Shown here: piece after piece, positions 4,327 through 45,059 of the stretch
Numbering within the stretch: position 1 is the stretch's first letter
How the letters are laid out: every line of letters starts with the position of its first letter
Source of the DNA: Microcoleus sp.
Lineage (GTDB): Bacteria > Cyanobacteriota > Cyanobacteriia > Cyanobacteriales > Microcoleaceae
Length of the DNA: 64,000 bases
Assembly (NCBI GenBank): GCA_042408215.1
Contig: JAYFMW010000005.1
Span: 224,001 to 288,000 of the forward strand
Direction of reading: 5' to 3'
Notes under the pieces: model-generated
Database searches by the model: none
What the model saw: only the letters and a program-made list of their open reading frames with translations
What the model was told of the DNA's origin: nothing
Program-made: the position numbers and the translations under genes

Positions 4327-5766
4327 ATGCGAATTCTATTTGTATCGGCAGAAGCAGCACCCCTCGCCAAAGTGGGCGGTATGGGCGATGTCGTCGGCGC
4401 TTTGCCCAAATTCCTGCGACGCATGGGCCACGATGTCCGCATCTTCATGCCCTACTACGGGTTCATCCCCGACAAAATGGATGTTCCCAAAAAACCTGTT
4501 TGGGAAGGTGCCGCCATGTTCCAAACCTTCTCCATCTTTGAAACTGTTTTGCCGGGAACCGATGTTCCTTTATACTTATTGCAACATCCATCTTTCTTGC
4601 CCCGCCGCATTTACGGTGGCCTAGATGAAGACTGGAGATTTACTTTCTTTTCCAATGCTGCGGCTGAATTTGCCTGGAATCACTGGAAGCCACAAATCAT
4701 CCACTGTCACGACTGGCATACGGGGATGATACCTGTTTGGATGCACCAAGACCCGGATATTAGCACTGTTTTTACTATTCACAATTTAGCATATCAAGGG
4801 CCGTGGCGCTGGCGTTTAGAGCAGATGACTTGGTGTCCTTGGTATATGCAAGGTCACAATACAATGGCAGCAGCAGTGCAGTTTGCCGATCGAGTAAATA
4901 CAGTTTCGCCAACTTATGCCGAGCAAATCAAAACAGCAGCTTACGGGGAAACCTTAGAAGGTTTGCTATCTTTTCTGGGTGGCAAGGTATCGGGAATTTT
5001 GAATGGAATTGATACGGAATCTTACAACCCGGCTACTGATAAGTACATCCCTCAACAATTCACGGCTGATACAATTGAAAAGCGCCCATCGAACAAAATA
5101 GCCCTGCAAGAAGAAGTCGGTTTAGAAGTCAATAAAAATGCCTTTTTGATTGGCATTGTCAGCCGGCTGGTAGAACAGAAGGGATTGGATTTAATCATTC
5201 AAATGCTCGATCGCTTCATGGCCTATACCGACGCTCAATTTATTGTACTCGGAACGGGCGATCGCTACTACGAAACCCAACTCTGGCAAATGACTGCCCG
5301 CTATCCCGGCCGGATGTCCACCCAACTACTGTACAACGATGCCCTTTCTCGGCGCATTTACGCAGGCTGCGACACCTTCCTAATGCCGAGTCGTTTCGAG
5401 CCCTGCGGCATCAGCCAAATGCTCGCCCTCCGCTACGGCTGCGTACCAATGGTGCGCCGCACCGGCGGTTTAGTCGATACCGTCTCCCACAACGACCCGA
5501 TCAACAACACTGGTACGGGTTACTGTTTCGATCGCTACGAACCACTCGACTTGTTCACCTGCATGATCCGAACTTGGGAAGGTTTCCGCTACAAAGATAA
5601 GTGGAAAGAACTGCAACAGCGCGGCATGAGAGAAGATTTTAGCTGGCATATTTCTGCCAAGAAATATGTCCAGTTGTACGGCGATGTTTTAGGATTACCA
5701 CCGGAAGCAATCTGCACCAGAACAACCAGAATTGATCCTTGGCAAGGGTTAATGGGTAATCGGTAA
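4327..5766 (+). CDS. glgA: Glycogen synthase
   Basis: [32 protein letters not shown] motifs. Confidence 0.97.
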
Positions 5767-6026: not shown

Positions 6027-6476
6027 TTAATCAACAAATAAATCAAGAGGTAAATGACCATAAGTACCGGTAACTCCTGCTTCCTCAGCGGATTGGCACG
6101 ACACCAAAACGCCACGGTAAGTTCCGGGATAGCCCTCAACATAATACGACCCCTTCAAAGTATTAAATTTAATATAAACCGAACCCGCCAATGAAGAGAC
6201 AGCATTTGGTTCAAAAACAGGTTGATAGCCCAAAGCTTTTAAATAGGTTTCTAAAGCTAAAAAACCCTCATTTGTCGAAGATGCACAGACACCTAGCATT
6301 TGGTAATCTGACAAACTTGCTACCAGCAATATCGCTTCACGAAGCGCCTGTTTGTCTAATGGAGAAGCTACAGATTGCATATCTAGACAGGTGAAGTCTT
6401 TCAGGATTTGCTGTGCTTTTTCAACAGTTAAGTTAGTCAGATTTTGAGTAAACATGAATTGCTCTGATATTCCCAA
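6027..6476 (-). CDS. DUF1824-family protein
   Basis: SDYQMLGVCA, YRGVLVSCQS, TYGHLPLDLF; the true start may be near 6455. Confidence 0.85.
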   Translation of the reverse strand: MGISEQFMFTQNLTNLTVEKAQQILKDFTCLDMQSVASPLDKQALREAILLVASLSDYQMLGVCASSTNEGFLALETYLKALGYQPVFEPNAVSSLAGSVYIKFNTLKGSYYVEGYPGTYRGVLVSCQSAEEAGVTGTYGHLPLDLFVD

Positions 6477-6601: not shown

Positions 6602-7681
6602 TTGTACCTTTGCAGTCAAATGTGCGATCGCCAGCATGACACAATCTACCTAGATTCTAAAGAGATCACAAAAATTTCCTCCCTATTGCTGAACTTGCCT
6701 CTATTAATGATAAACATAAATAGGACAAAAACCGAGGACGAGCCCATGAGCAACAACCAATTGCTAGAAAACGTAAAAATCTTGCGAAAATTTCTATTTC
6801 GCCTGCTACACAAAGCCAAACTTACCTACTTAATCCTGATCTTTGTCATCAGTTTAGGTATTTCCGGCTGGAGTAGAGAATCTGCTACTCTCAGAATTCC
6901 TATTATCGGCTTTCACGACATTATAGATGCTCAAAAAACAGCCGACTTGCCACCTCGCAGACCCGCCTTTGAAAATGACTACACCAAACAAGATTTGTCA
7001 GTGTTTTTAGAATATTTATTTCAACAAAACTATTGGTTTTTATCATCTCAAGACTTGTATGTCTATTTCATAGACAAGTCTCAACCCATACCAGAGCAAC
7101 ACCAGGGTCAAAAACCAATTATGATTACCTTTGACGACGGCTACAAAGGCGTTCATACCAATGCACTTCCCCTCCTGAAAAAACTGTCGCTGCTCTATAA
7201 AGAAAACGGTAAATTTGTGTTATTCGTCAATCCTCACTTCTTGGGTATTGCTATGGGCGGAAAATTTTTGCCCCACACTACTTGCAACGATTTAAGAGAA
7301 GGATATCAAAAGGGTTTTTATGACATTCAATCTCACGGTTTCACTCACAAAAACTTAACTGAACTCAATGGGCAAGATTTAGAGTTAGAAATTTCTAAAT
7401 CTAAATTAGCTTTGAGAAAATGTATGGGCGACTTAGACAAAAATAAAATTATCGGCGCTCATATAGCCTATCCCTACGGCGCATCAGACAGCGAAGTGGA
7501 AAAGATTTTGCCTAAATATCATTTAACTGGCTTTTTGTACAATGACAGATTTTTGAGAGTACAGCGCCTGAGAAATAACTATCGTATCTCTCGTATAACT
7601 ACTGACAGAAATACGTCCCCTAGAGATTTAATTCGGGTAGCTCAAAAGGCTTCAACTTTCAGACAAAAAAACTGGTTTTAG
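6602..7681 (+). CDS. Polysaccharide deacetylase family protein
   Basis: ITFDDGY, IQSHGFTH, AYPYG NodB motifs; true start probably downstream (about 6707-6746). Confidence 0.9.
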   Translation: MYLCSQMCDRQHDTIYLDSKEITKISSLLLNLPLLMININRTKTEDEPMSNNQLLENVKILRKFLFRLLHKAKLTYLILIFVISLGISGWSRESATLRIPIIGFHDIIDAQKTADLPPRRPAFENDYTKQDLSVFLEYLFQQNYWFLSSQDLYVYFIDKSQPIPEQHQGQKPIMITFDDGYKGVHTNALPLLKKLSLLYKENGKFVLFVNPHFLGIAMGGKFLPHTTCNDLREGYQKGFYDIQSHGFTHKNLTELNGQDLELEISKSKLALRKCMGDLDKNKIIGAHIAYPYGASDSEVEKILPKYHLTGFLYNDRFLRVQRLRNNYRISRITTDRNTSPRDLIRVAQKASTFRQKNWF

Positions 7682-7732
7682 TACAAAAAACTCGTTTTTG
7701 TACTAAACTACAGCGTATTCCAAGTTTATGAA

Positions 7733-7972
7733 GTAGGGACACTCCAGGAGCCCATTGGTGTCAACAACCAGCCTGAAAGCCTTGATAAATCTCGTTTTTA
7801 GCTGAGTCTAGATCCCCCTAAATCCCCCTTAAGAAGGGGGACTTAAAGAGGCTTCCTGTCCCCCCCTTCTTAAGGGGGGCTAGGGGGGATCTAGGCTTAA
7901 TAGTCAAACAGCAGTCTCTGACTGGGTTTGAAGTTAAGTTGACACAAAGAAGGGCTCTTGGAGTGTCCCTAG
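7733..7972. mobile_element. Composite element: GTAG-type REP shell containing a GGTGTCAAC...GTTGACAC MITE with CCCCCTTAAGAAGGGGG palindromes
   Basis: Outer inverted repeats TAGGGACACTCC/GGAGTGTCCCTA; homologous copy at 34153-34391. Confidence 0.75.
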
Positions 7973-8056
7973 GGTGGGGATAGATCGATCTGGGGTGTCC
8001 TTCATAAATGTGGAATCTGCTGTATGTCCGCCGAGTTTTTACGGATTTTTTCAAGT

Positions 8057-8752
8057 TTAAATGAGCCCGCGTTTTTTCAACTTTGCTAGTGCATCTTCCG
8101 CTGCATTTTTTTCAGCATCTTTTTTACTTTTACCTTTACCTTCTCCATAGGGTTTCTCTGCGACATAAACTTTAGCGAGAAATTCGGGAGCGTGAGGTGC
8201 ACCTCCTGCTTGGATTGTCACATATTTGGGAGGAGTTGTGTCACCGCTGGCTTGTACCCATTCCTGAAAGCGGTTTTTTGAGTCTACAAGGTTTTTTGGC
8301 CCAGTATCCGACTGAGGATAAACCATACTATTAGCCACTGGAATAAACAGCTTTTTAACAAAGGCGCGGACAGGTGTAATGGTTGAGTCGAGATAGTACG
8401 CACCAATAATCGCTTCAAAAGTATCGCAAAGCAAAGAGGGATTTTGGCGACCTTTATCTTGTTCTGCCCCTTTTCCCAGGCGCATTAACTTACCTATACC
8501 TAGTTGTTCAGCAAACTTTGCTAGCTGATTTTGATCGACTAATCCAGAGCGCAAGCGAGTTAATTGAGCTTCGGTAAAATCTTCATAGTGCTTATACAAG
8601 ATTTCGCCGACTAGATAACCTAGCAGGGCGTCGCCAAGGAATTCTAGTCGCTCGTTGTGTTCGCCTGCTTCTGGGTATTCGTTAACGTAGGAACGGTGAG
8701 TGAGCGCGTGAATGAGAAGTGATTCATTTTTAAATTTGGGAAGTTTGTACAT
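8057..8752 (-). CDS. rnc: Ribonuclease III with canonical catalytic residues and dsRBD
   Basis: ALTHRSY, NERLEFLGDA, CDTFEAIIGA, KNRFQEWVQ, GKSKKDAEKNAA. Confidence 0.95.
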   Translation of the reverse strand: MYKLPKFKNESLLIHALTHRSYVNEYPEAGEHNERLEFLGDALLGYLVGEILYKHYEDFTEAQLTRLRSGLVDQNQLAKFAEQLGIGKLMRLGKGAEQDKGRQNPSLLCDTFEAIIGAYYLDSTITPVRAFVKKLFIPVANSMVYPQSDTGPKNLVDSKNRFQEWVQASGDTTPPKYVTIQAGGAPHAPEFLAKVYVAEKPYGEGKGKSKKDAEKNAAEDALAKLKKRGLI

Positions 8753-8798
8753 TTTTATGTCTTGACTTGCTGGAAAATTAATGGCATCGAAAACCTGT

Positions 8799-10010
8799 CT
8801 ATATTAGCCGGAGTTTTTTTAGTGCGACTTCAGCAGCACGTTTTTCAGCTTCTTTTTTACTGCGACCACTACCTTTACCGTACACCTTACTATTTACGCG
8901 CACTTCAACAGCAAATTCTTTAGCATGATCTGGCCCTGCCTCCTGAATTGTGATGTATTGAGGGGTAATTGGCCCGATATTCTGCTGTACCCATTCCTGA
9001 AACCGATTTTTTGGGTCTACAAGAATGTTAGAGTCCGGTTCTGGCTGAGAAGAAATAATTTCTTCCACTACTGGCGTAAATAGCGGTTCTACAAAATCGC
9101 GGACTGCCTCAATGCCAGAATCCAGAAAATACGCGCCGATAATTGCTTCAAAAGTGTTGCTGAGTAAGGACTGCTTGGTTGTACCTCCACTTGTTGCCTC
9201 ACCCTTGCCTAACAGCATCCACTTACCGATATCCAAGTCGGCAGAAAACTTTGCCAATTGCTTGTCTTCCACCAATAAGGAACGCAGGCGAGTTAGTTCA
9301 CCTTCATTTTTATCTGAATAGTGGCGGTAGAGATATTCGCCACTTAGAAAAGTCAGCAAGGCATCGCCGAGAAATTCTAATAGCTCGTTGTCTTTGCTGA
9401 CTTTTCCAGGATTTTCGTAAAGGTAAGAGCGGTGAGTGAGTGCCTGATTTAGCAGATATGCCTCCTGAAAAGGCAGTTTTTTGAGGATTTTATCTAATCT
9501 CTCTTGAATGCGTTTTTCTTCACCAGGGGAGACAACTGAACCCTGGCGAGTTTCGTAACGGGTTTGCTCTTGAGACAAGATTCGCAGGACTTCTAGCTTT
9601 TGTTTTTCTATATTATCTGCCTGTTCTAATGCAGATACAGCCTTGAGGAGTATGGCAATACTGCCGAGAGCGCGATAGGTGTCTTCAGTGGAAAATAAGG
9701 AATTGTGTGCCCAGTTATTGCGGACTTCTATAAGTTCAAGCACTAGAGCTTTCTCACAAGGAGTTAAATGCTTTTTGAAGACATCATCCCACTGCTTTGA
9801 CACGACGGATAACAGGATCGAAATATCTTCACGCAGAATATTATCTATTTTTTTTATTTTGGGTATTTTATTGTTGGTCAAGCAATCTTGAGCCTTTGCC
9901 AGCCAGCGATCGCCGTGAACTGTCTGCATTTTCTGCTCGACATAAGGATACAATCCCTGACCTAGAATATTTAAAGCTTTGGTAACTCGTTCATGATTGC
10001 TAATAGCCAT
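8799..10010 (-). CDS. Swt1-like HEPN domain fused to ribonuclease III and dsRBD
   Basis: N-terminal MAISNHERV...EVRNNWAH...DTYRAL (Swt1-like HEPN, RxxxxH); C-terminal NELLEFLGDA, SNTFEAIIGA and dsRBD. Confidence 0.88.
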   Translation of the reverse strand: MAISNHERVTKALNILGQGLYPYVEQKMQTVHGDRWLAKAQDCLTNNKIPKIKKIDNILREDISILLSVVSKQWDDVFKKHLTPCEKALVLELIEVRNNWAHNSLFSTEDTYRALGSIAILLKAVSALEQADNIEKQKLEVLRILSQEQTRYETRQGSVVSPGEEKRIQERLDKILKKLPFQEAYLLNQALTHRSYLYENPGKVSKDNELLEFLGDALLTFLSGEYLYRHYSDKNEGELTRLRSLLVEDKQLAKFSADLDIGKWMLLGKGEATSGGTTKQSLLSNTFEAIIGAYFLDSGIEAVRDFVEPLFTPVVEEIISSQPEPDSNILVDPKNRFQEWVQQNIGPITPQYITIQEAGPDHAKEFAVEVRVNSKVYGKGSGRSKKEAEKRAAEVALKKLRLI

Positions 10011-10193
10011 CTGTTGTCTTTCCCGAAATTTCTTTATTTCTTGTTGCTACATTTAAAGTTGTGAGTTTTTCGGACACATAAGGAGTGTTGCTTAAGGATT
10101 GGCAAGAGATTAATATTTCCAAACAAATAAGATTAAAAAGTAGGCATTAATGCTACTTCTGATTTACTTATATCACAGTCCTGGATGCACTCC

Positions 10194-10584
10194 GCCAAAG
10201 AAACCGGGTTTTTTACAGAATCTGTGGATTGTAACGCGTCTTCTCGCAAAAACCCGGTTGCTGGGCCCCCGTACAACCAAAGAAACCGGGTTTCGACTTC
10301 GCTCAACCAGCAAGTTTTTTGCGGTTTTTGCCGACTTTAACCAAGTATTGTCGCAAAAACCCGGTTTCTGGGCCCCGGTACAACCAAAGAAACCGGGTTT
10401 CGACTTCGCTCAACCAGCAAGTTTTTTACAGAATCTGTGGACTGTAACCAAGTATTGTCGCAAAAACCAGGTTTCTGGACCCCGGTACAACCAAAGAAAC
10501 CGGGTTTCGACTTCGCTCAACCAGCAAGTTTTTTACAGAATCTGTGGACTGTAACCAAGTATTGTCGCAAAAACCCGGTTTCTG
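10194..10584. repeat. Tandem array of 107-bp hairpin units (AGAAACCGGGTTT...AAACCCGGTTTCT)
   Basis: Units start at 10274, 10381 and 10488, plus a shorter first unit at about 10194; single relatives at about 33367-33430 and 37629-37694. Confidence 0.9.
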
Positions 10585-10648
10585 ACTACCCGATCGCCCA
10601 CCTGAAAAAACCAAATGTAAAAATATGTTGCAAAATTTGTACAACTGT

Positions 10649-10666
10649 GTTAAGTTTAGTTACATA
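10649..10666 (+). promoter_or_regulatory. Putative HLR1 (RpaB-binding) direct repeat upstream of the hli gene
   Basis: GTTAAGTT-TA-GTTACATA resembles the (G/T)TTACA(T/A)(T/A)-N2 repeat; hli genes are known RpaB targets. Confidence 0.55.
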
Positions 10667-10694
10667 AGGTTGAAATTACACGAGGTTTCTGGTC

Positions 10695-10838
10695 ATGGAA
10701 AACAAAAACGCAAAAGTTGGCTTCACTGAGTTCGCTGAAACCTGGAATGGTCGTTTGGCAATGCTGGGCTTCGTTATTGGCCTAGCGACCGAATTCCTCA
10801 CCGGTCAAGGTATTCTCTCTCAAATCGGTTTGATGTAA
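10695..10838 (+). CDS. hli: High-light-inducible protein (Hli/SCP), 47 aa, absent from the ORF track
   Basis: MENKNAKVGFTEFAETWNGRLAMLGFVIGLATEFLTGQGILSQIGLM; ExxNGRxAMLG motif. Confidence 0.96.
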   Translation: MENKNAKVGFTEFAETWNGRLAMLGFVIGLATEFLTGQGILSQIGLM

Positions 10839-10913
10839 TCTGCTCAACTGCTAGATATTTAATCTATGAGGGCGATCGACCCCATCACAAACAAGTGCGA
10901 TCGCCCGCCAACC

Positions 10914-10945
10914 AGTCCCCTTCACTCAATCTGAAGGGGACTTTT
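10914..10945 (+). terminator. Intrinsic terminator of hli
   Basis: AGTCCCCTTCA / TGAAGGGGACT stem followed by T residues. Confidence 0.75.
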
Positions 10946-11030
10946 AAATTTTGTATGTAAAAACAAAGACGATCGCACCCGTAAAAATTCTTCCCGTCCC
11001 AACATTGAAATTTGAGACACACCGCACCAA

Positions 11031-11243
11031 TTAAGCAATTCCTACCGAATCCAAAACCCTCAATTTAGGAGTCAAAGCAGAGAGCTTAACCAAACTGTCG
11101 AGTTTGCGAGTCCGCCCGCTGTTACCTAAAACCATCTCCGACAAATCCGGCATTTCCTGCCAGCAATGCGGGCAGAACCAATAAACGCGATTTTGGCGAG
11201 CGTGGCGGAGTAATTGAGATGAGCAACAAGGGCAACTATTCAT
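11031..11243 (-). CDS. Small zinc-ribbon protein
   Basis: CPCCS...WFCPHCWQEMP, a typical small cyanobacterial hypothetical protein. Confidence 0.8.
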   Translation of the reverse strand: MNSCPCCSSQLLRHARQNRVYWFCPHCWQEMPDLSEMVLGNSGRTRKLDSLVKLSALTPKLRVLDSVGIA

Positions 11244-11815: not shown

Positions 11816-13501
11816 TTGAGGAAAAAGCTATTGTCAGGTACGTCCCACCCAAAGAAGCGTCGTCCATCCTTGGAGTCAACGAAAGAACTCTCCGACGTTG
11901 GGAAGAAGCAGGCAAAATCCAAGCGCTCAGAACACCGTCAGGACTCTGAAGGTATAACGTTGACAGGTTTGCAGCTCTCGCCACTAGAACCGACAACCGA
12001 ATTGCTGTTGTCTACGCCAGAGTCAGTAGTCGCACACAACAACCCGACCTCAACAGACAAGTCGCCCACCTTAGCAGTCTCTACCCGGAAGCCGAAATCT
12101 GTAGCGAAATCGGAGGCGGACTTAATTTCAAACGCAAAAAGCTTCTTTCCCTATTGGAACGAATCTTCAAAGGTGATGTCAGAATGGTTGTCGTTGCCCA
12201 CAAAGACCGATTGGCAAGATTCGGCTTTGACCTGTTCAAATGGCTCTGCGAGCAAAACCGGTGTGAACTCGTGGTACTCAACGAAACAAACCTTAGTCCA
12301 GAAGCAGAAATGGTTGAAGACATCCTCGCAATTCTCCACTATTTTAGCAGTAGATTGTACGGACTCAGAAAGTATAAATCTCAAATCAAAGAAGATCAGG
12401 ATTTACCCCACACCTGAGCTACACAAAGTTTGGCGTCAATGGCTGGCAGCCTGTCGTTATTGTTTCAATCAAGCAATAGCAATGCAGCGAAAAAAACGCT
12501 TAACCAAGTTAGAATTGCGTAACGAAGTTATGCGAGGTGATTTACCTGAATGGGTAAAAGAAACGCCTTGTCATATCAGGCAAAATGCTGTGTTTGATGC
12601 TCACAGAGCTTTCAAGGCAAGTTCAGACGCCAAGTTTCGTAGTATCAGAGATTACTCTCAAGCCATCAAATTTAACGATTCAAATTTCAGCTCATGCACT
12701 TGGTATCCTTCCTTAACCAAAGGATTAACATTTAAAGCTGCTGAAAATATTCCTGAATGCCAGCACGGGACTCAACTACTTTACTGCAAGGGTCGTTGGT
12801 TTGCGGTGTTTCCTGTACCAGTTACTGTTCACCCTACCGATGCAACTGGAATTATTGCATTAGATCCGGGCGTAAGAACATTTATGACCGGATTTGATGG
12901 CAATAAATTCATTGAGTTTGGAGGTGGTGACATGGGACGTATCACTCGTTTGTGTCAACACTTAGATGACTTAATGAGCCGAATATCTCAAGCCACGAAA
13001 CAGCAAAGAAAACGCATGAGACAAGCAGCTCATCGCATGAGAATACGCATTCGCAACTTAGTTGATGAGTGCCAAAAACAAACGGCTTGTTATCTAACTA
13101 GCAACTATCGAGTCATATTTCTTCCTACTTTTGAGTCTTCCCAAATGGTAGCCAAAGCACGAAGAAAGATTCGTTCAAAAACTGCTAGGGCGATGTTAAC
13201 TTGGGCCCATTACAGATTCAAGCAAACCATCAAACATCAGGCAAATATCAGAAACGCAAGCGTGATTGATGTAACTGAAGAATACACATCTAAAACTTGT
13301 ACCCATTGCGGTCACGTACATCATTCGTTAGGTGGTTCTAAAGTGTTTACTTGTCCTGAATGTGGCTACTCAATCCCACGGGATTATAATGGCGCTTTTG
13401 GTATTTTACTAAAAGCTTTGCGGGATACCGCCTCTATCTCTTATGAGGGCGATAGTGCTATCGTTACTTTGTCCGGTAATAGCCGGGTAAGTGTCGCGTA
13501 A
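11816..13501 (+). CDS. tnpB: IS607 TnpB, pro-Fanzor type (rearranged RuvC)
   Basis: ALDPGVR, IFLPTF, VTEEYTSKTC, CxxC...CxxC, RDYNGA; conserved core starts near 12380 (KKIRIYP); real start unknown. Confidence 0.9.
   Translation: MRKKLLSGTSHPKKRRPSLESTKELSDVGKKQAKSKRSEHRQDSEGITLTGLQLSPLEPTTELLLSTPESVVAHNNPTSTDKSPTLAVSTRKPKSVAKSEADLISNAKSFFPYWNESSKVMSEWLSLPTKTDWQDSALTCSNGSASKTGVNSWYSTKQTLVQKQKWLKTSSQFSTILAVDCTDSESINLKSKKIRIYPTPELHKVWRQWLAACRYCFNQAIAMQRKKRLTKLELRNEVMRGDLPEWVKETPCHIRQNAVFDAHRAFKASSDAKFRSIRDYSQAIKFNDSNFSSCTWYPSLTKGLTFKAAENIPECQHGTQLLYCKGRWFAVFPVPVTVHPTDATGIIALDPGVRTFMTGFDGNKFIEFGGGDMGRITRLCQHLDDLMSRISQATKQQRKRMRQAAHRMRIRIRNLVDECQKQTACYLTSNYRVIFLPTFESSQMVAKARRKIRSKTARAMLTWAHYRFKQTIKHQANIRNASVIDVTEEYTSKTCTHCGHVHHSLGGSKVFTCPECGYSIPRDYNGAFGILLKALRDTASISYEGDSAIVTLSGNSRVSVA
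11830..12417 (+). pseudogene. tnpA: IS607 TnpA (MerR-like HTH plus serine recombinase) with in-frame TGA at 11947-11949
   Basis: RYVPPKEASSILGVNERTLRRWEEAGKI..RTPSGL*RY..VYARVSSRTQ..GGGLNFKRK..HKDRLARFG; start codon uncertain (ATT assumed). Confidence 0.88.
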
Positions 13502-14155: not shown

Positions 14156-14825
14156 TAAAAGCCCCGTCCTTTTAGGACGGCTTTAATTTTTTCTGTTTGT
14201 TTCAGGCTTGAGATTGTGAGCGTCAACCGTAAAGATTCTTGAAACAGTCGATTTATAGCCACTGTCCGTAAACAGTGCTATAATAGTTCCATGATTGTAC
14301 TGGAGTTCGCGTTAAAAGGTAAGCCACAGCAATACCGGGTCGTAGACGAAATGAGCCACACAGCTCAGTTTGTCCGAAACAAAGCTCTTAGATACTGGAT
14401 CGACAATCAAGGAGTTAAACTATCCGACCTCTACAAGCAATGTGCCATCATGGCTAAAGAGTTTGAATGGGCCGGAAAACTTAACTCAATGGCACGTCAA
14501 GCTACGGCACGAACGATGCCCTTTTTGCTATCCTACGTTTTTTCTCGAATTGCAAAGCTAAGAAGCCAGGAAAAAAAGGGATACCCACAATTCAAAAAGC
14601 AGACTCGTTCCGTAGAATATAAGACTTCAGGTTGGAAGCTTTCCACTGATAAAAGATGTCTCACTTTCACAGAAAAGTTAATTAATTACGAATTACGAAT
14701 TACGAATTACGAGGGGATAATTCGTAATTCGTAATTTTTAATTCGTAATTCTAAGTGGTGACATCAACGGGCAAGCCGACTGATTGAACCAAGAATCCTC
14801 GGGCCTGTATGCCGAGGAGTGTCAA
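14156..14825 (+). mobile_element. Internally deleted IS200/IS605 (tnpB-only) element
   Basis: Left hairpin CCGTCC-TTTTA-GGACGG; right hairpin TCCTCGG...CCGAGGA followed by GTGTCAA; truncated tnpB between them. Confidence 0.8.
14291..14734 (+). pseudogene. tnpB: Truncated TnpB N-terminus without RuvC
   Basis: MIVLEFALKGK..QFVRNKALRYW..KGYPQFKK..SVEYKTSGWKL, then runs into an ATTACGA repeat palindrome. Confidence 0.85.
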
Positions 14826-21404: not shown

Positions 21405-22802
21405 TCAACCTGAGTACAGGTATGATGTGGGCTTCTTGGCAGCCCGATGAAGGGTATGCAAGATTTCCTTCGTGGTACTGTCATCCATAGTTCCTACTAC
21501 AGAAAGATTCCCGCTACGGCGTTTTATACTTGGGAAAATGTCCAACCCAAGTCTCTTTAAATTAATCGCGGCGTTGAGATCGCGGTCAACTATCAGAGAG
21601 TTTTGCTCATCCCAATAATCTCGGACACTGCAATCGGTGAAAATAATTTCATTCCGATAACTGAGAACCATTGAGGTATAAGCAGGTTTTTGTGGAACGA
21701 CGACTGATCCAGCTTTTTCGGCTATGTATTCCAGCGTCTTGAAAAATTGACCGAACGCAGCATCGAGCCAAGACTTGTTTAATCCTGATTTTGCTGATTG
21801 ACCATTGGGAAGATAATTGCCTTCATCATCTTGCTTAACTTTATTTCGTTTAGTTAAGCTTTTTAAATTTAAATCTTCGTGAAAGAAGAACTTAGCTCCA
21901 GACCTGACAAGTTTGTGGGCCGTTTTGTAATGAAAGTCTTGGCGAGAACGCGCTATTTTTTGGTGTTGTCTCGCTTCTTTTTTGGCTAATTTCCGTCGGG
22001 ACTTAGAGCCACGCTTCCGTTTGTTCCGCTTCTTTGAAATGCGGTCTAGCTTAGCTTGATTATTCCGAAGCGGTTTCAATGAAGGCAACTTTTCGCCTGA
22101 CGACGTTGCTAGGTAGACAGCTTCGTGTAGTACCGCGTCTAACCCAATTGAGTTGTCCCAGTTTGGGGTAATTTTATCAGGAATAAACTGCGGTACTGAA
22201 GCATCTTCAAGCATTATTTGGACGAACCAACCGTCAGCCTTTCTAGTTACACTAATTTGCTTGACGGCAAACCCATCAGGGATTGGACGGTGCATCCGAA
22301 CTTTTACGATACCTAACTTTGGCAGTCGGATATAAGACCAACTCTTGCGAATTAACCTAATCCAGTCGCTGTTAGCCGTACAAAAAGTCATCGTTCGATA
22401 ATCCGCTTCAGTCTTGAATCGGGGTTTACCCGATCTTCCACCCTTACTGTCTCCTATGATAAACCGCTCGAAAGCTTTGTCTACTCGCTTAGAAATATCT
22501 TGCAGAACTGTTGAATCTACCTGCTTGAAGTCTAAAAGTTCGCCACTGTGGAAGACTTTTACCAAGTCTTTTTTGATGACTGGCAGTTGCTGCTTCTGGG
22601 AGTAGTAGTTGGGCTTTGCGCGGGGCGCAGAGATGCTAGCAACCAATGGACAAGCATTTATAGCAGTACGGTTTCTTTCCCACCAATCAAATCTATCTCC
22701 CAATTGGCGATTGTACCAATAACGGCAAATTCTGAGCCATTGGTTAAGCGTTAGTTTTTGATTGGTGTCGGGATAGAATTGGTACTGGTAGGTTGCTTTC
22801 AT
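21405..22802 (-). CDS. tnpB: TnpB (IS605 OrfB) lacking zinc-finger cysteines
   Basis: YQYQFYP, IGLDAV, FHEDLN, DRDLNAAINL. Confidence 0.92.
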   Translation of the reverse strand: MKATYQYQFYPDTNQKLTLNQWLRICRYWYNRQLGDRFDWWERNRTAINACPLVASISAPRAKPNYYSQKQQLPVIKKDLVKVFHSGELLDFKQVDSTVLQDISKRVDKAFERFIIGDSKGGRSGKPRFKTEADYRTMTFCTANSDWIRLIRKSWSYIRLPKLGIVKVRMHRPIPDGFAVKQISVTRKADGWFVQIMLEDASVPQFIPDKITPNWDNSIGLDAVLHEAVYLATSSGEKLPSLKPLRNNQAKLDRISKKRNKRKRGSKSRRKLAKKEARQHQKIARSRQDFHYKTAHKLVRSGAKFFFHEDLNLKSLTKRNKVKQDDEGNYLPNGQSAKSGLNKSWLDAAFGQFFKTLEYIAEKAGSVVVPQKPAYTSMVLSYRNEIIFTDCSVRDYWDEQNSLIVDRDLNAAINLKRLGLDIFPSIKRRSGNLSVVGTMDDSTTKEILHTLHRAAKKPTSYLYSG

Positions 22803-22868
22803 TGCATCACAGGCGATACGCTTCAATTAGTGTTACTCGATCAGAGAAGACTGTTTAGTGTCAAGTAT

Positions 22869-28876: not shown

Positions 28877-31100
28877 CTACTGAACGAACAAATTACTTGC
28901 AGTCAAAGGAGCATCAGAGAAGACAGTAACTGCACCGCCCGAAGCAAAAGTAATTTTACCAGTGCTGTTGACTTGGCTTAAAACTGTGCTTGCAGTTAAC
29001 CCCGAACCCCGAATTTGAATGATATCTTTATCGGCGACAGAGAAAGAGTAGATGGTATCTTGTCCGATCAATACATCTTGAGTGGTATTAAAGTTGAAAT
29101 AGTCCTGACCAGCACCACCAATCAAGCTATCATTACCGACACCACCTTGAAGAAAATCATTTCCATCACCGCCAAAGAGTACATCATTACCTTCATTGCC
29201 GAATAGGTTATCAGCTCCTGCACCACCAATCAAGCTGTCATTACCGATACCACCGTCAAAAAAGTCATTGCCATCACCGCCAAAGAGCAAATCATTACCT
29301 TCATAGCCAAAGGCGACATCATCTCCACCTAAAAGATCGATCGTATCATTACCATCAGTACCAGTAAAATTGTCACGATTCTGGGTGGCGATCGGTGGTT
29401 TTGCTTGTGAGACATAACCAGCAAGGCTAGGAATTTCATAACCTTTATCCGCCAAGACTGCTAAATCCGCTCTTGTTGGGAATCGTCCACCAGCACCTGG
29501 TGACATAACTGCTGGTTGACCATCAATGCGGAAGTTTTGATCGATGTGAGGATTACCACCGGGCATAAATGGAATCGGATTACCACCATTAACATTCAGC
29601 GCATTAGGCCCCGTTCCTTGAGTGAAGGGATAAAAACCTAGTGAGTGACCAATTTCGTGTACGGCCACACTAATGAAATCATTTTGGGTTGCTGGAATAT
29701 CATTAACAGTTGTAGGTGTTGGGTCAAAAAACCAGTTAAGACTTGATTCAAAAGAGATGCTGCCAAAAATATCGCCCGGTTCTTGCTTGTCGAATGCTGT
29801 CATATCGAACTGTTTGACCAGAAACCAGTTGTCCTGCTGCGCTTGCGTTTGGATTACCAAAGACGGGAGATTGACCGCCGACGAACAGAACCATATCATC
29901 AATTTGGGAATCGAAGGTAACGTTTTGGTCTTGTCCCGTAATTGGATGGGTTATGGTGCCAGATATGCCAATAGGCGGATCGGGAAAATCGTTTTTGATG
30001 ACATCTTCCCAGATTTTACCTGCTGCTTCCAGCGCTGCTTTGCGACTAGGATCGTTAAAGAAACCAGTGGTATCGTAACGATAGTCGAACTTGATATTAA
30101 ATCCGTTAGGCGTAGGCGGGGTAGGCACTTGTGGTGTCACAGGTGTCGGAGTTGTTACTACAGGCGTCGGAGTTGTAACTACAGGTGTCGGAGTTGTTAC
30201 CGCAGGTGTCGGAGTTGTGACCACAGGTGTCGGAGTTGTAACTACAGGGGTCGGAGTTGTAACTACAGGCGTCGGAGTCGTTACTACAGGCGTCGGAGTT
30301 GTTACTACAGGCGTCGGAGTTATTGAAGGTGTCGGCGTCGGCGTCGGAGTTATTGAAGGTGTCGGCGTCGGCGTCGGCGTTATTGAAGGCGTCGGTGTCG
30401 GTGTTACCGCAGGCGTCGGAGTTGTCACAGGCTTCGGCGTCACAGTCTTAACCCCGCTAGCGTTAGCAATAGTCAAGTTTTTCTCACCCTGCAAAACTGC
30501 CAAATAATCGCCTGTCACCTGATCCTGAATAATCGTGTAGCCAGCATTAGCCCCTGTGCCCACATAAATATTGAGGTCATCAAAGGCAACATCGCTCCTT
30601 AACTGGATTACATCCTCACCGTCTGTATAATCAACGATCGAGTCCGCATCCGACAACTGAGGGCCCCCAGTATTTTTACCGATAAAAAAAGTGTCATTAC
30701 CACTCCCCCCAGTTAAGGTATCAGCTCCCTGGTCGCCATAGAGAATGTCATCCCCCAAGTTGCCTGACAGGCTGTCATTACCTTTGCCCCCTTGGATAGT
30801 ATCGTTACCTTTGCCCCCGTTTACGGTATCGTTACCCTCGCCGCCGTATAGCAAGTCATCGTCAGAGTCGCCAAAGAGTTGATCCTCTCCTTTGCCGCCG
30901 TACACACTATCATTACCCTTGCCGCCGTTAAGGGTATCAATGCCTTCGTTACCGTATAGCTTGTCGTCTCCTAAGTTGCCATAGATTAAGTCGTTTCCAT
31001 CACGGCCAAATACTAAATCAGAGCCTTGTTGTCCAAATATCGAGTCTGCATCGAGGGTGCCATTCAGAGTATCGTCAGCCAGCGTTCCATTAATGTTCAT
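28877..31100 (-). pseudogene. RTX Ca-binding repeat protein with Pro/Thr linker and zinc-metalloprotease domain, split by one frameshift near 29765-29810
   Basis: GGxGxD repeats at both ends, VVTTPTP repeats, AVHEIGHSLG; two overlapping ORFs. Confidence 0.85.
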
Positions 31101-43447: not shown

Positions 43448-44155
43448 AAGAAAACTAGATCAAATTTTAGCAAAATACCAAAATTCATTTACCGATAAAG
43501 TTTACGCAGAAGAGAATGAAGAACACGATATTTTAATGAATGTGTTTGGTATCTCTCCCATAATAAAAAGAGAAAATAGGCAATATTGGGGGCGCGAGTT
43601 AGGTATGTGTTGGCAATTATTAGTTATTGAAACGTGCAAAGCATATTGCAGTAGTTTTCAGCCAGCATTTAATACCAGTTTTTTATGAGGCTGCATAGAA
43701 TCTGATCCCCCCTAACCCCCCTTAATAAGGGGGGAACAAGATTCTGCTCTTTCGTCAACCCCTACTCACACCCTACTCCCTTATTAAGGGGGATTTAGGG
43801 GGATCGAGATATATGCAACGACCCATTAAATTGGTATAAAGTCGGAAGCGATGAGCCGTGCGATCTGATTGTTGATGGGTACGCGATAGATACAAAATAC
43901 CGTATTGGCTCAGGAGATTCTGGAACACTGAAAAAATTCAAATCCTATGGTCCACTACTTCGTACTTATAATTACGAGCCAGTTATTTTAATACTTAGAC
44001 AAGATAATTTGCCCGCAGCTATTACAGCGTGCCAAGTAGGGACTTGGAGAGTTTATACTGGGGATGCTTCCTTTGAGTTCATACAAACAATAAGCGGATT
44101 TGATTTAAAGTCATTTCTTACTGAAAGAGTGGGAGAATTCCCTGTATACCGCTGA
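43437..44155 (+). pseudogene. Type II restriction endonuclease (ApaLI-like PD-(D/E)xK) interrupted by a MITE
   Basis: Removing 43673-43836 plus one TAA restores 183 aa: ..RELGMCWQ..PAFKVGSDEPCDLIVDGYAIDTKYRIGSGDSGT.. Confidence 0.88.
43673..43836. mobile_element. 164-bp MITE with a TAA target duplication
   Basis: Ends TACCAGTTT / AAATTGGTA; TAA at 43670-43672 and 43837-43839. Confidence 0.9.
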
Positions 44156-45059
44156 CATTATCAAGGCGCTTGTTGATAATCTCTATGTATTCAGGTACTA
44201 TTTCAATACCAACATACCTAATCCCAAATTCTTGCGCCGCCAGTAATGTAGTTCCAGATCCTGCGAAAGGATCGATGAGAATAGAATTTTCCAAACGCGG
44301 TACAAATATTTCGACCAGCTTTCTCATTAGAGCGATCGGTTTAACTGTGCAATGAACGTTAAACTCCTCGGTTTTTTCACGCTGTATACCTTCTAAAATA
44401 TTGGACTGAAAACCACCGAACTGATCTTTAGTATAAAATAGACCAGTACCATACTCCTGTAGAGTTTCCAAGTAATTATTGACCAGTGGTTTTTGAAGTA
44501 CGCAGATTGCTTCCCATTCATTCCTCAAACAACTGTGCCAACCATCCCATTTTTCGGGATTTTCATATCCTTTCTTCTCGAACTGTTGTTTGATATTGAC
44601 ACCTTTAGGGATACCACTCGATCTTTTATAAACAAGCATATCTCTCGCATAGAATCCAGCATTTTCAAGTGCTACTTGTACGTGAGCAACAGTTCGTGTG
44701 CTGTTGAAAACTAAAACTGTCGCACCCGGTTTGCAGATCCGAAAATGCTGCTCACCCCAATCAAGGCACCACTTCTCATAATCCAGAATGTTGTTACGAT
44801 TCCTTTGATACCATTTTTCGTTTCTGACTCCACCAGCTAAACCACTGCCATAAGGAATGTTTTTAACAAGGGTTTTATTTCCCTTGTCATTGACTCTTTC
44901 AATACGTCTTTGAATTTCTGAATCATCCCATTTATGACCAATAAATTCATAATTATAAGGTGGGTCAGTGATACACGCAGAAACATAATTTTCTGGCAAT
45001 GTCTTCATCACTTCACGACAGTCGCCAACCAAAACTTCATTTGAGGGAGTTTTTTTCAT
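44118..45059 (-). CDS. Site-specific DNA methyltransferase (N4-C/N6-A, beta class)
   Basis: TDPPY precedes HCTVKP and DPFAGSGTT. Confidence 0.95.
   Translation of the reverse strand: MKKTPSNEVLVGDCREVMKTLPENYVSACITDPPYNYEFIGHKWDDSEIQRRIERVNDKGNKTLVKNIPYGSGLAGGVRNEKWYQRNRNNILDYEKWCLDWGEQHFRICKPGATVLVFNSTRTVAHVQVALENAGFYARDMLVYKRSSGIPKGVNIKQQFEKKGYENPEKWDGWHSCLRNEWEAICVLQKPLVNNYLETLQEYGTGLFYTKDQFGGFQSNILEGIQREKTEEFNVHCTVKPIALMRKLVEIFVPRLENSILIDPFAGSGTTLLAAQEFGIRYVGIEIVPEYIEIINKRLDNVSGIQGILPLFQ

Follow-up and report, generated by a model that had tools for sequence, protein, structure and literature searches.

A HEPN–RNase III fusion with a tandem RNase III paralogue in Microcoleus: a candidate accessory double ribonuclease at an exchangeable locus

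Why would a cyanobacterium with a canonical RNase III keep a second one, joined to another ribonuclease domain and with a further copy directly behind it? This question is raised by a 64,000-nucleotide stretch of Microcoleus sp. DNA (contig JAYFMW010000005.1, positions 224,001 to 288,000; the window), in which a gene encoding a HEPN(Swt1)–RNase III–double-stranded RNA-binding domain (dsRBD) fusion is followed by a stand-alone RNase III–dsRBD gene, its partner. We tentatively favour, with a confidence somewhat short of even, an accessory double ribonuclease which is directed to double-stranded RNA (dsRNA) and acts on mobile-element RNA in conflict with plasmids or phages.

The architecture itself is already known. 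Anantharaman et al. 2013 listed 'RNASEIII and DSRBD (Cyanobacteria), active' among the fusions of the Swt1 family and called a Lyngbya protein (gi 119489560) a 'two-headed RNase', probably making multiple cuts in dsRNA (PMC3710099). A preliminary description of the window, made from the sequence alone, had stated that no described system has this architecture, which this listing contradicts. The protein of 2013 resembles the window fusion in domain order, HEPN family, cyanobacterial host and predicted activity, but the accessible part of that paper gives a prediction only, without a tandem paralogue, an NYN alternative or a retron context. The slot, its NYN alternative and the nesting in retrons are additions of the present analysis. 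The openly accessible literature was found to contain no experiment on a HEPN–RNase III fusion, nor any account of a tandem partner, of an NYN alternative or of a retron context, although subscription papers or the 2013 supplement may hold some of these.

The fusion protein and its two nuclease domains

The features of the pair are as follows (aa, amino acids; ORF, open reading frame).
8799 to 10010, minus strand: HEPN(Swt1)–RNase III–dsRBD fusion gene (P0001), 403 aa, from its ORF and profile matches
9633 to 9980, minus strand: Swt1-like HEPN domain of the fusion, aa 11–126 (PF18731, E 4e-33)
9705 to 9722, minus strand: RxxxxH motif RNNWAH, R97 to H102, with E92 upstream also invariant (alignment of homologues)
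9051 to 9485, minus strand: RNase III domain of the fusion, aa ~176–320, with E209, E212, D216, E236 and E288 kept and N285
8811 to 9014, minus strand: dsRBD of the fusion, aa 333–400 (PF00035, E 3e-21)
8753 to 8798, no strand: 46-bp spacer between fusion and partner, kept among the tandem loci of the genus
8057 to 8752, minus strand: stand-alone RNase III–dsRBD paralogue, the partner (P0002), 231 aa

Both ORFs lie on the minus strand and are 46 bp apart, in agreement with the preliminary description. The paralogy which it had proposed from LTRLRS, TFEAIIGA and LVDxKNRFQEWVQ is borne out, since all three motifs are common to both proteins and 125 of 227 residues are identical (55%, E 9e-78). 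Fusion and partner score 228.9 and 230.1, respectively, with the NCBIfam RNase III equivalog TIGR02191 (cut-off 166.25), and a PF00035 dsRBD is present in each. The best named relatives of the fusion are Microcoleus proteins with ~72% identity in the HEPN region and the same flanking genes.

The N-terminus had been likened to Swt1-like HEPN domains, and the profile PF18731 places it there with 114.6 bits against a cut-off of 27.5, covering positions 1–115 of the 115 in the model. RNNWAH is found at 9722–9705 as described. Among 96 aligned homologues, which include one non-fusion and one fragment, E92 is kept in 96/96, R97 in 96/96 and H102 in 94/96, and the near-invariance of R97 and H102 indicates that the RxxxxH motif is not a chance occurrence. 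The AlphaFold model of the fusion (pLDDT 89, pTM 0.47) consists of three separately folded modules joined by weak linkers at residues 151–158 and 323–330. With the HEPN modelled alone, the best whole-domain structural match is the C-terminal HEPN of yeast Swt1 (4pqz; Z 8.7, 126 residues aligned, root-mean-square deviation 3.4), and PbAbiF (8vz6) gives Z 7.5 over 143 residues with a deviation of 3.7; these Z scores fall within the background for helical bundles, and most remaining matches are 50-residue helical hairpins. Foldseek returned nothing below E 0.001 for this model, and the HEPN profile had no significant match among PDB sequences. Prediction of a two-copy HEPN complex (alignment A2) scored 0.33, 0.31 and 0.34 against a mark of 0.42, with controls at 0.11, 0 and 0, and counts for neither side.

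The nearest relatives of this HEPN are the N-termini of ~1100-aa DUF499 ATPases, which correspond to HmaC of PADLOC and are ~50% identical, so that the kinship to DUF499-type ATPases suggested earlier is upheld. A quick tree of 54 rows, rooted at its midpoint, gathers all 24 fusion HEPNs in a single branch (SH-aLRT 99), which itself falls inside a group of cyanobacterial HmaC HEPNs (96). The fusion has a single origin, and the simplest reading of the tree is a single capture of the HEPN from a cyanobacterial HmaC/DUF499 ATPase. HmaC belongs to type-1 BREX-related (Hma) systems, where the HEPN has been proposed as a backup, last-resort suicide effector (PMC12839542). The window pair is like these systems in its HEPN, on an adjoining branch, but comes without their ATPase, methylase and helicase: tblastn found no HmaC in this genome, the neighbours of the pair are unrelated to a DUF499 ATPase, methylase or helicase, and the genome contains one HEPN_Swt1 domain only. 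On viral contigs, all four confirmed loci (4/4) encode HEPN–DUF499 ATPases and none a fusion.

By a probably similar fold and by the Abi2/Swt1 grouping, the HEPN is also related to the AbiF/AbiD type III toxin-antitoxin systems (PMC13064643; PDB 8vz6). In contrast to these, the window HEPN is fused to RNase III, and no conserved upstream non-coding RNA (ncRNA) was found across genera. A comparison of the 250 nt upstream of the gene, made for 26 fusion and 5 HmaC loci, showed similarity among close kin only, and no Rfam match near the gathering score was found upstream of the fusion loci, although an RNA conserved in structure only could escape such detection. An AbiF-like upstream ncRNA was therefore dropped from consideration. 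Two shortened forms were seen among the homologues, namely P0154 (247 aa), in which a dsRBD follows the HEPN with no RNase III between them, and a fusion at L121:7413–8399 (minus strand) in which the latter half of the RNase III domain is missing. Both are probably deletions, and such proteins would send a HEPN to dsRNA without RNase III activity.

In the E. coli enzyme, the essential acids are E41, D45 and E117, to which E38 and E65 are added (PMC10037077). When this numbering is carried over by motif, E38/E41/D45/E65/E117 correspond to E209/E212/D216/E236/E288 of the fusion and E34/E37/D41/E61/E113 of the partner. Among homologues of the fusion, E212 is kept in 94/95, D216 in 95/96, E236 in 94/95 and E288 in 94/95, and the partner keeps six acids (E34, E37, D41, E61, D110 and E113). 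The exception in the fusion is position 285, equivalent to E. coli D114 and partner D110, which is N in 80 of 95 homologues and D in 12. We considered that N285 might turn the RNase III into a dead sensor and rejected this, because D114 is the one active-site acid of E. coli which tolerates change (D114G fitness 0.99, cleavage 48% vs 69%; PMC10037077 Table 1), the first RNase III domain of Drosha has N at this position, and stand-alone members of the same family carry D, S or N. Among 9 fusion alleles, the ratio of nonsynonymous to synonymous divergence (dN/dS) is 0.39 for the HEPN, 0.18 for the RNase III and 0.33 for the dsRBD. Both nuclease heads of the fusion look intact from their motifs, and the apparent catalytic competence of its RNase III suggests that this domain is more than a mere sensor.

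The partner and the second RNase III family

The RNase III half of the fusion belongs to a second RNase III family of cyanobacteria, whose members are 43–59% identical to the C-terminal half of the fusion and occur without a fusion in most of the order's genomes. With the fusion-derived query, the family was not found in the small picocyanobacterial-type genomes sampled. The partner combines a sub-type B catalytic domain with a sub-type C-like dsRBD, which is 82–97% identical, in alignment windows, to that of sub-type C; such swapping of dsRBDs between paralogues blurs the quick RNase III tree, which excludes three short or broken rows. Elsewhere in this genome, a canonical, ~30%-identical RNase III gene lies on contig C20 and a degenerate RNase III-like locus on contig C12. 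On C12, a 360-codon frame (64675–65754, plus strand) contains two degenerate RNase III-like domains without a dsRBD and adjoins ORFs which, by eye, are vWA-, phosphatase- and kinase-like.

Among 251 genomes of the phylum, a full-length fusion was found in 14, which belong to a single order, and all named matches to the fusion are cyanobacterial. The preliminary description had treated the two genes as a unit. At family level, where 38 of 121 genomes carry the fusion, this holds for 24 tandem cases (14 in this genus and 10 in three sister genera) and fails for the other 14, and at phylum level the paralogue is next door in only 4 of 14; the pair is thus conserved in part of one family. Ten genomes chosen for an apparently partnerless fusion included nine in which only the fusion and one lower-scoring RNase III, assigned by its profile score to the canonical type, exceeded the cut-off of the RNase III profile, and one with a separate extra copy. 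The existence of fusion-only genomes indicates that the fusion can dispense with the partner. In the sister genera the genes form arrays with 1–3 RNase III copies, for example solo HEPN > NYN > fusion > RNase III > RNase III, which are often decayed.

No terminator-like site was scored in the 46-bp spacer, and a promoter scan of the locus gave 1 site where 4.9 are expected. Four metatranscriptome contig sets contain short, low-depth pieces on both genes, possibly due to DNA carry-over, and none across the pair.

Cyanobacterial RNase III enzymes are on record as degrading antisense duplexes (PMC10989914). In Synechococcus PCC 7002, rRNA is processed by A0061, whereas A2542 cleaves the duplex formed by a plasmid counter-transcript and keeps the copy number of the plasmid down (PMC5829567). 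A2542 also gave no cross-linked dimer, in contrast to the two further enzymes of that study, for which the authors blame its structure or the position of its lysines (PMC5829567). The first six codons of A2542, taken from a primer in that paper, fit the LPxF start of the second family, and the A0061 start resembles the C20 gene. On these six N-terminal residues only, A2542 may be regarded as a lead to an orthologue of the second family, although the link is weak. This probable member would share with the window genes the RNase III–dsRBD architecture and the status of an accessory to a more divergent, separate RNase III (in this genome the C20 gene), while the window copies differ in being tandem-duplicated and HEPN-fused.

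Several variants were seen around members of the family. A stand-alone HNH gene of 75–78 aa lies directly upstream of the fusion in L002–L006, and a similar one precedes stand-alone RNase III copies in L106, L111 and L264. A candidate defence pair, HEC-01A/B of PADLOC (L123:9579–11521, minus strand), immediately precedes a fusion that has no partner. The top profile matches also include proteins with two RNase III domains and one or two dsRBDs (P0108, P0115, P0133, P0153, P0155, P0157, P0173 and P0199).

An exchangeable slot and its retron context

Within the genus, the locus is a slot that is held in one of two states. Among 71 genomes, 15 contain the fusion and 52 a single RNase III of sub-type C, and 4 have no match. 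An NYN gene lies directly upstream in 51 of the 52 single-copy genomes, one further NYN occurs in a genome without an RNase III match, and none of the 15 fusion genomes (0/15) carries the NYN allele; the Fisher P of 5e-14 for this exclusion ignores kinship and is not relied on. The slot has the same flanks in both states, and these are listed here together with the gap that the relatives fill differently.
4327 to 5766, plus strand: glgA, downstream slot edge (synteny)
6027 to 6476, minus strand: DUF1824, downstream slot edge (synteny)
6602 to 7681, plus strand: polysaccharide deacetylase, convergent, downstream slot edge (profile match and synteny)
10011 to 11030, no strand: gap upstream of the fusion, where relatives carry the WGR and SWIM genes and ncRNA of a type XIII retron and this genome 107-bp repeats only
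10195 to 10584: 107-bp genome-wide repeats in this gap, 3–4 tandem units built on a motif with 1205 genome copies
11031 to 11243, minus strand: conserved 70-aa ORF without a Pfam match, upstream edge of the slot in the genus

When the two states are placed on a tree of glgA from 18 loci, in which several forks are not resolved, they are interspersed and need 7 changes, which indicates that they are not clades. The alleles themselves are divergent. Within the genus, HEPN domains are 54–94% and NYN proteins 35–76% identical, whereas the adjoining sub-type C RNase III, DUF1824 and glgA are 90–100% identical (glgA 93–98% in the HEPN/NYN comparison). Synonymous divergence (dS) is 0.84 for NYN against 0.19 for glgA and 0.55 for the fusion HEPN against 0.27, or 2–4 times that of glgA, suggesting that the slot alleles are older than their flanks or were imported. 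The dN/dS of NYN is 0.49, beside 0.39 for the HEPN.

The NYN connection is not limited to the genus, as NYN precedes the second RNase III in 5 of 15 stand-alone loci of other families, and NYN–RNase III–dsRBD fusions occur in three separate 50% clusters (P0099, P0109 and P0117; L153:2247–3362, plus strand). Together with the HEPN fusion, these upstream genes and fusions indicate that the second RNase III family has repeatedly been coupled to a second RNase. A similar NYN–RNase III fusion, in which the RNase III is degenerate, is present in L156.

In relatives, the slot lies within a type XIII retron. The neighbours in L008 and L117 are the WGR, SWIM and reverse transcriptase (RT) genes of PADLOC type XIII (WGR_XIII, SWIM_XIII, RT_XIII). 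SWIM is followed by a 220-nt element which is 72–94% identical among cyanobacterial loci and folds into a long hairpin; it has no Rfam match and is taken, by position and conservation, as the putative retron ncRNA. The RNase cassette is placed between this ncRNA and the RT, and the resulting order WGR > SWIM > ncRNA > cassette > RT is found in L008, L117 and L256–L260 and partly in L264 and L267. In L256 (G343:C65), from the same genus, the gene order of the window recurs with a whole retron around fusion and partner, while in L257–L260 and L117 the retron surrounds NYN and RNase III. The 121 family genomes contain 24 full-length type XIII RTs; 19 of these follow a member of the second RNase III family at a distance of ~2 kb or less, 2 do not and 3 cannot be judged. 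The WGR/HEAT, SWIM, ncRNA and RT of the type XIII retron (PMC7736814) thus surround the slot in relatives and are absent from this genome; the accessible part of that paper (Mestre et al. 2020) makes no mention of RNase III or NYN. Two copies of the retron ncRNA were seen in L267 and in L177.

Possible roles of the cassette

We propose that a HEPN was captured once from a cyanobacterial HmaC/DUF499 defence ATPase and joined to the second RNase III. The dsRBD and the RNase III dimer would bind and cut an RNA duplex, such as the sense–antisense pairs of plasmids, phages and other mobile elements. The same dimer would hold two HEPN domains beside the bound RNA, and the single-strand cuts added by these may cause the RNA to be destroyed rather than processed. 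Such cutting by both nucleases is predicted from the biochemistry of RNase III and HEPN enzymes. The partner would be a tandem, catalytically intact copy which does the ordinary job of its family and is not an antitoxin, and the cassette would alternate, in a conflict slot, with a second allele in which a member of the same RNase III family is accompanied by an NYN RNase. A slot filled by either of two RNase alleles but never by both, where the alleles seem to predate the flanking genes and in some relatives lie within a retron operon, has the look of a defence locus. The role in conflict, for which the preliminary description had argued, is probable in view of the allele exchange and of the retron context in relatives; its observations are confirmed, while its interpretation as a whole is partly supported. 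This comparative picture gives the fusion predicted in 2013 a testable role and bears on the open question of the purpose for which many cyanobacteria retain a further RNase III.

Several observations weigh against this reading. Profile scans found no defence gene near the pair and no defence island within the window, and PADLOC had no model match for fusion or partner at E 1. No retron part was detected in this genome by tblastn or blastn, and a linked RT is kept in 8 of 58 of the genus. Of 80 type XIII loci elsewhere, a single one is preceded by a member of the second RNase III family, and another has a canonical RNase III on the opposite strand. The Nostocales fusions sit among housekeeping genes. 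Internal stops are present in 3 of the 38 fusions at family level and in more within the sister-genus arrays, and fusions broken in this way suggest that the gene is dispensable. Relaxed constraint could likewise produce rapid divergence with a dN/dS below 1. As to the independence of the fusion, the partner type occurs in 14 of the 71 genus genomes, always behind the fusion, and a single fusion lacks it; tight linkage explains this association, and functional pairing would do so too.

A bolder form of the double-ribonuclease reading, possible but on the whole doubtful, would see here an undescribed RNA-level immune locus of filamentous cyanobacteria, nested in type XIII retron operons, with the second RNase III as a core that recognises dsRNA and with interchangeable, fast-evolving single-strand RNases kept as alternative alleles, the HEPN joined by fusion and the NYN by operon or fusion; in the HEPN allele, dsRNA bound by the RNase III dimer would switch on the HEPN toxin as a bacterial counterpart of RNase L. 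As in RNase L and Ire1 (KEN-HEPN), dimerisation of the HEPN nuclease could be driven by a fused module; the window fusion differs in having no kinase or ligand-binding domain, and its gating is postulated. If dsRNA does gate the HEPN, the protein would sense dsRNA directly in the immunity of bacteria, and a nuclease triggered by dsRNA would also be a useful tool; if not, it would still illustrate how an RNase III can change in nature from processing RNA to destroying it.

Among the alternatives, a self-gated abortive-infection effector survives best, although we consider it unlikely. Here the RNase III–dsRBD part would bind long or abundant invader dsRNA or be hit by a phage factor, upon which a HEPN dimer would cut host tRNA or rRNA in trans without need of a partner. 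Such suicide would be in line with the derivation of the HEPN from HmaC, for which the last-resort role was proposed (PMC12839542), with the apparent structural kinship to the AbiF toxin and with the retron context and allele turnover; the low-confidence linker 151–158 at the HEPN makes gating possible in the model, and A2542, if an orthologue, would fit RNA-dependent dimerisation in giving no cross-linked dimer (PMC5829567). The stronger constraint on RNase III than on HEPN (0.18 vs 0.39) argues that the former is more than a clamp. Moreover, in the nine fusion-only genomes picked, the fusion is the sole copy of a family which works on antisense RNA, so that it must meet dsRNA daily without killing, and the NYN alternative, mostly a separate gene, could not be gated likewise.

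Domesticated RNA turnover, in which RNase III and a single-strand RNase would help the cell to clear endogenous antisense duplexes and repeat-derived hairpins faster, with no role in defence, appears rather unlikely. The housekeeping neighbourhood here and in Nostocales speaks for it, as do the inverted and direct repeats in which this genome is rich (one 12-mer occurs 1205 times) and the degradation of antisense duplexes by cyanobacterial RNase IIIs (PMC10989914). It leaves unexplained the mutually exclusive, old and fast-evolving alleles beside 95%-identical neighbours, as well as the patchy presence in 14 of 251 genomes and the retron context.

It is improbable that the cassette is part of the cyanobacterial type XIII retron and was orphaned in this genome, with RNase III trimming the retron RNA or HEPN and NYN acting as extra effectors. 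The recurrent order with the cassette between ncRNA and RT and the position of 19 of 24 RTs next to a member of the second RNase III family would be accounted for in this way, but the cassette is intact and under purifying selection without a retron in most genomes, type XIII retrons elsewhere lack it, and the loci of the Nostocales fusions contain no retron.

Quite improbable is a toxin-antitoxin-like pair, in which the partner would heterodimerise with the fusion and leave one HEPN per dimer, silent until the partner is lost: the linkage in the genus (14/14 partner-type genes directly behind a fusion, 14/15 fusions with a partner), a 46-bp spacer fitting one transcript, the 10 further tandem cases in three sister genera and the 55% identity, which makes heterodimers plausible, stand against fusions without an adjacent paralogue (14/38 in the family, 10/14 at phylum level), fusion-only genomes, a partner with a complete active site whose family occurs in most genomes of the order without the fusion, and arrays of 1–3 copies between which dsRBDs were swapped, a pattern typical of tandem duplication with recombination. 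The earlier suggestion that the short paralogue inactivates the fusion is accordingly weak. Membership in the type II toxin-antitoxin systems was rejected on the lack of obligate linkage (the 14 of 38 fusions and the fusion-only genomes), and a dedicated antitoxin without an enzymatic role of its own on the intact active site and on the wide occurrence of the partner's family alone.

The remaining features of the window lie outside the pair. Nested inverted repeats at 7709–8024 (7805–7897 with flanks) have several hundred copies in the genome and are abundant in RNA-library contigs; like the 107-bp upstream repeats, they are genome-wide and do not belong to the system. TnpB genes of the IS200/IS605 type are located at 11816–13501 (plus), 14291–14734 (plus) and 21405–22826 (minus), the first of which overlaps short, apparently broken resolvase-like frames at 12081–12417 (minus) and occupies the place of a PAS histidine kinase in relatives. 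A solitary N6/N4 DNA methylase (44118–45059, minus) adjoins MutS2, and two overlapping ORFs with RTX calcium-binding repeats at 28877–31100 (minus) possibly represent one gene in two frames.

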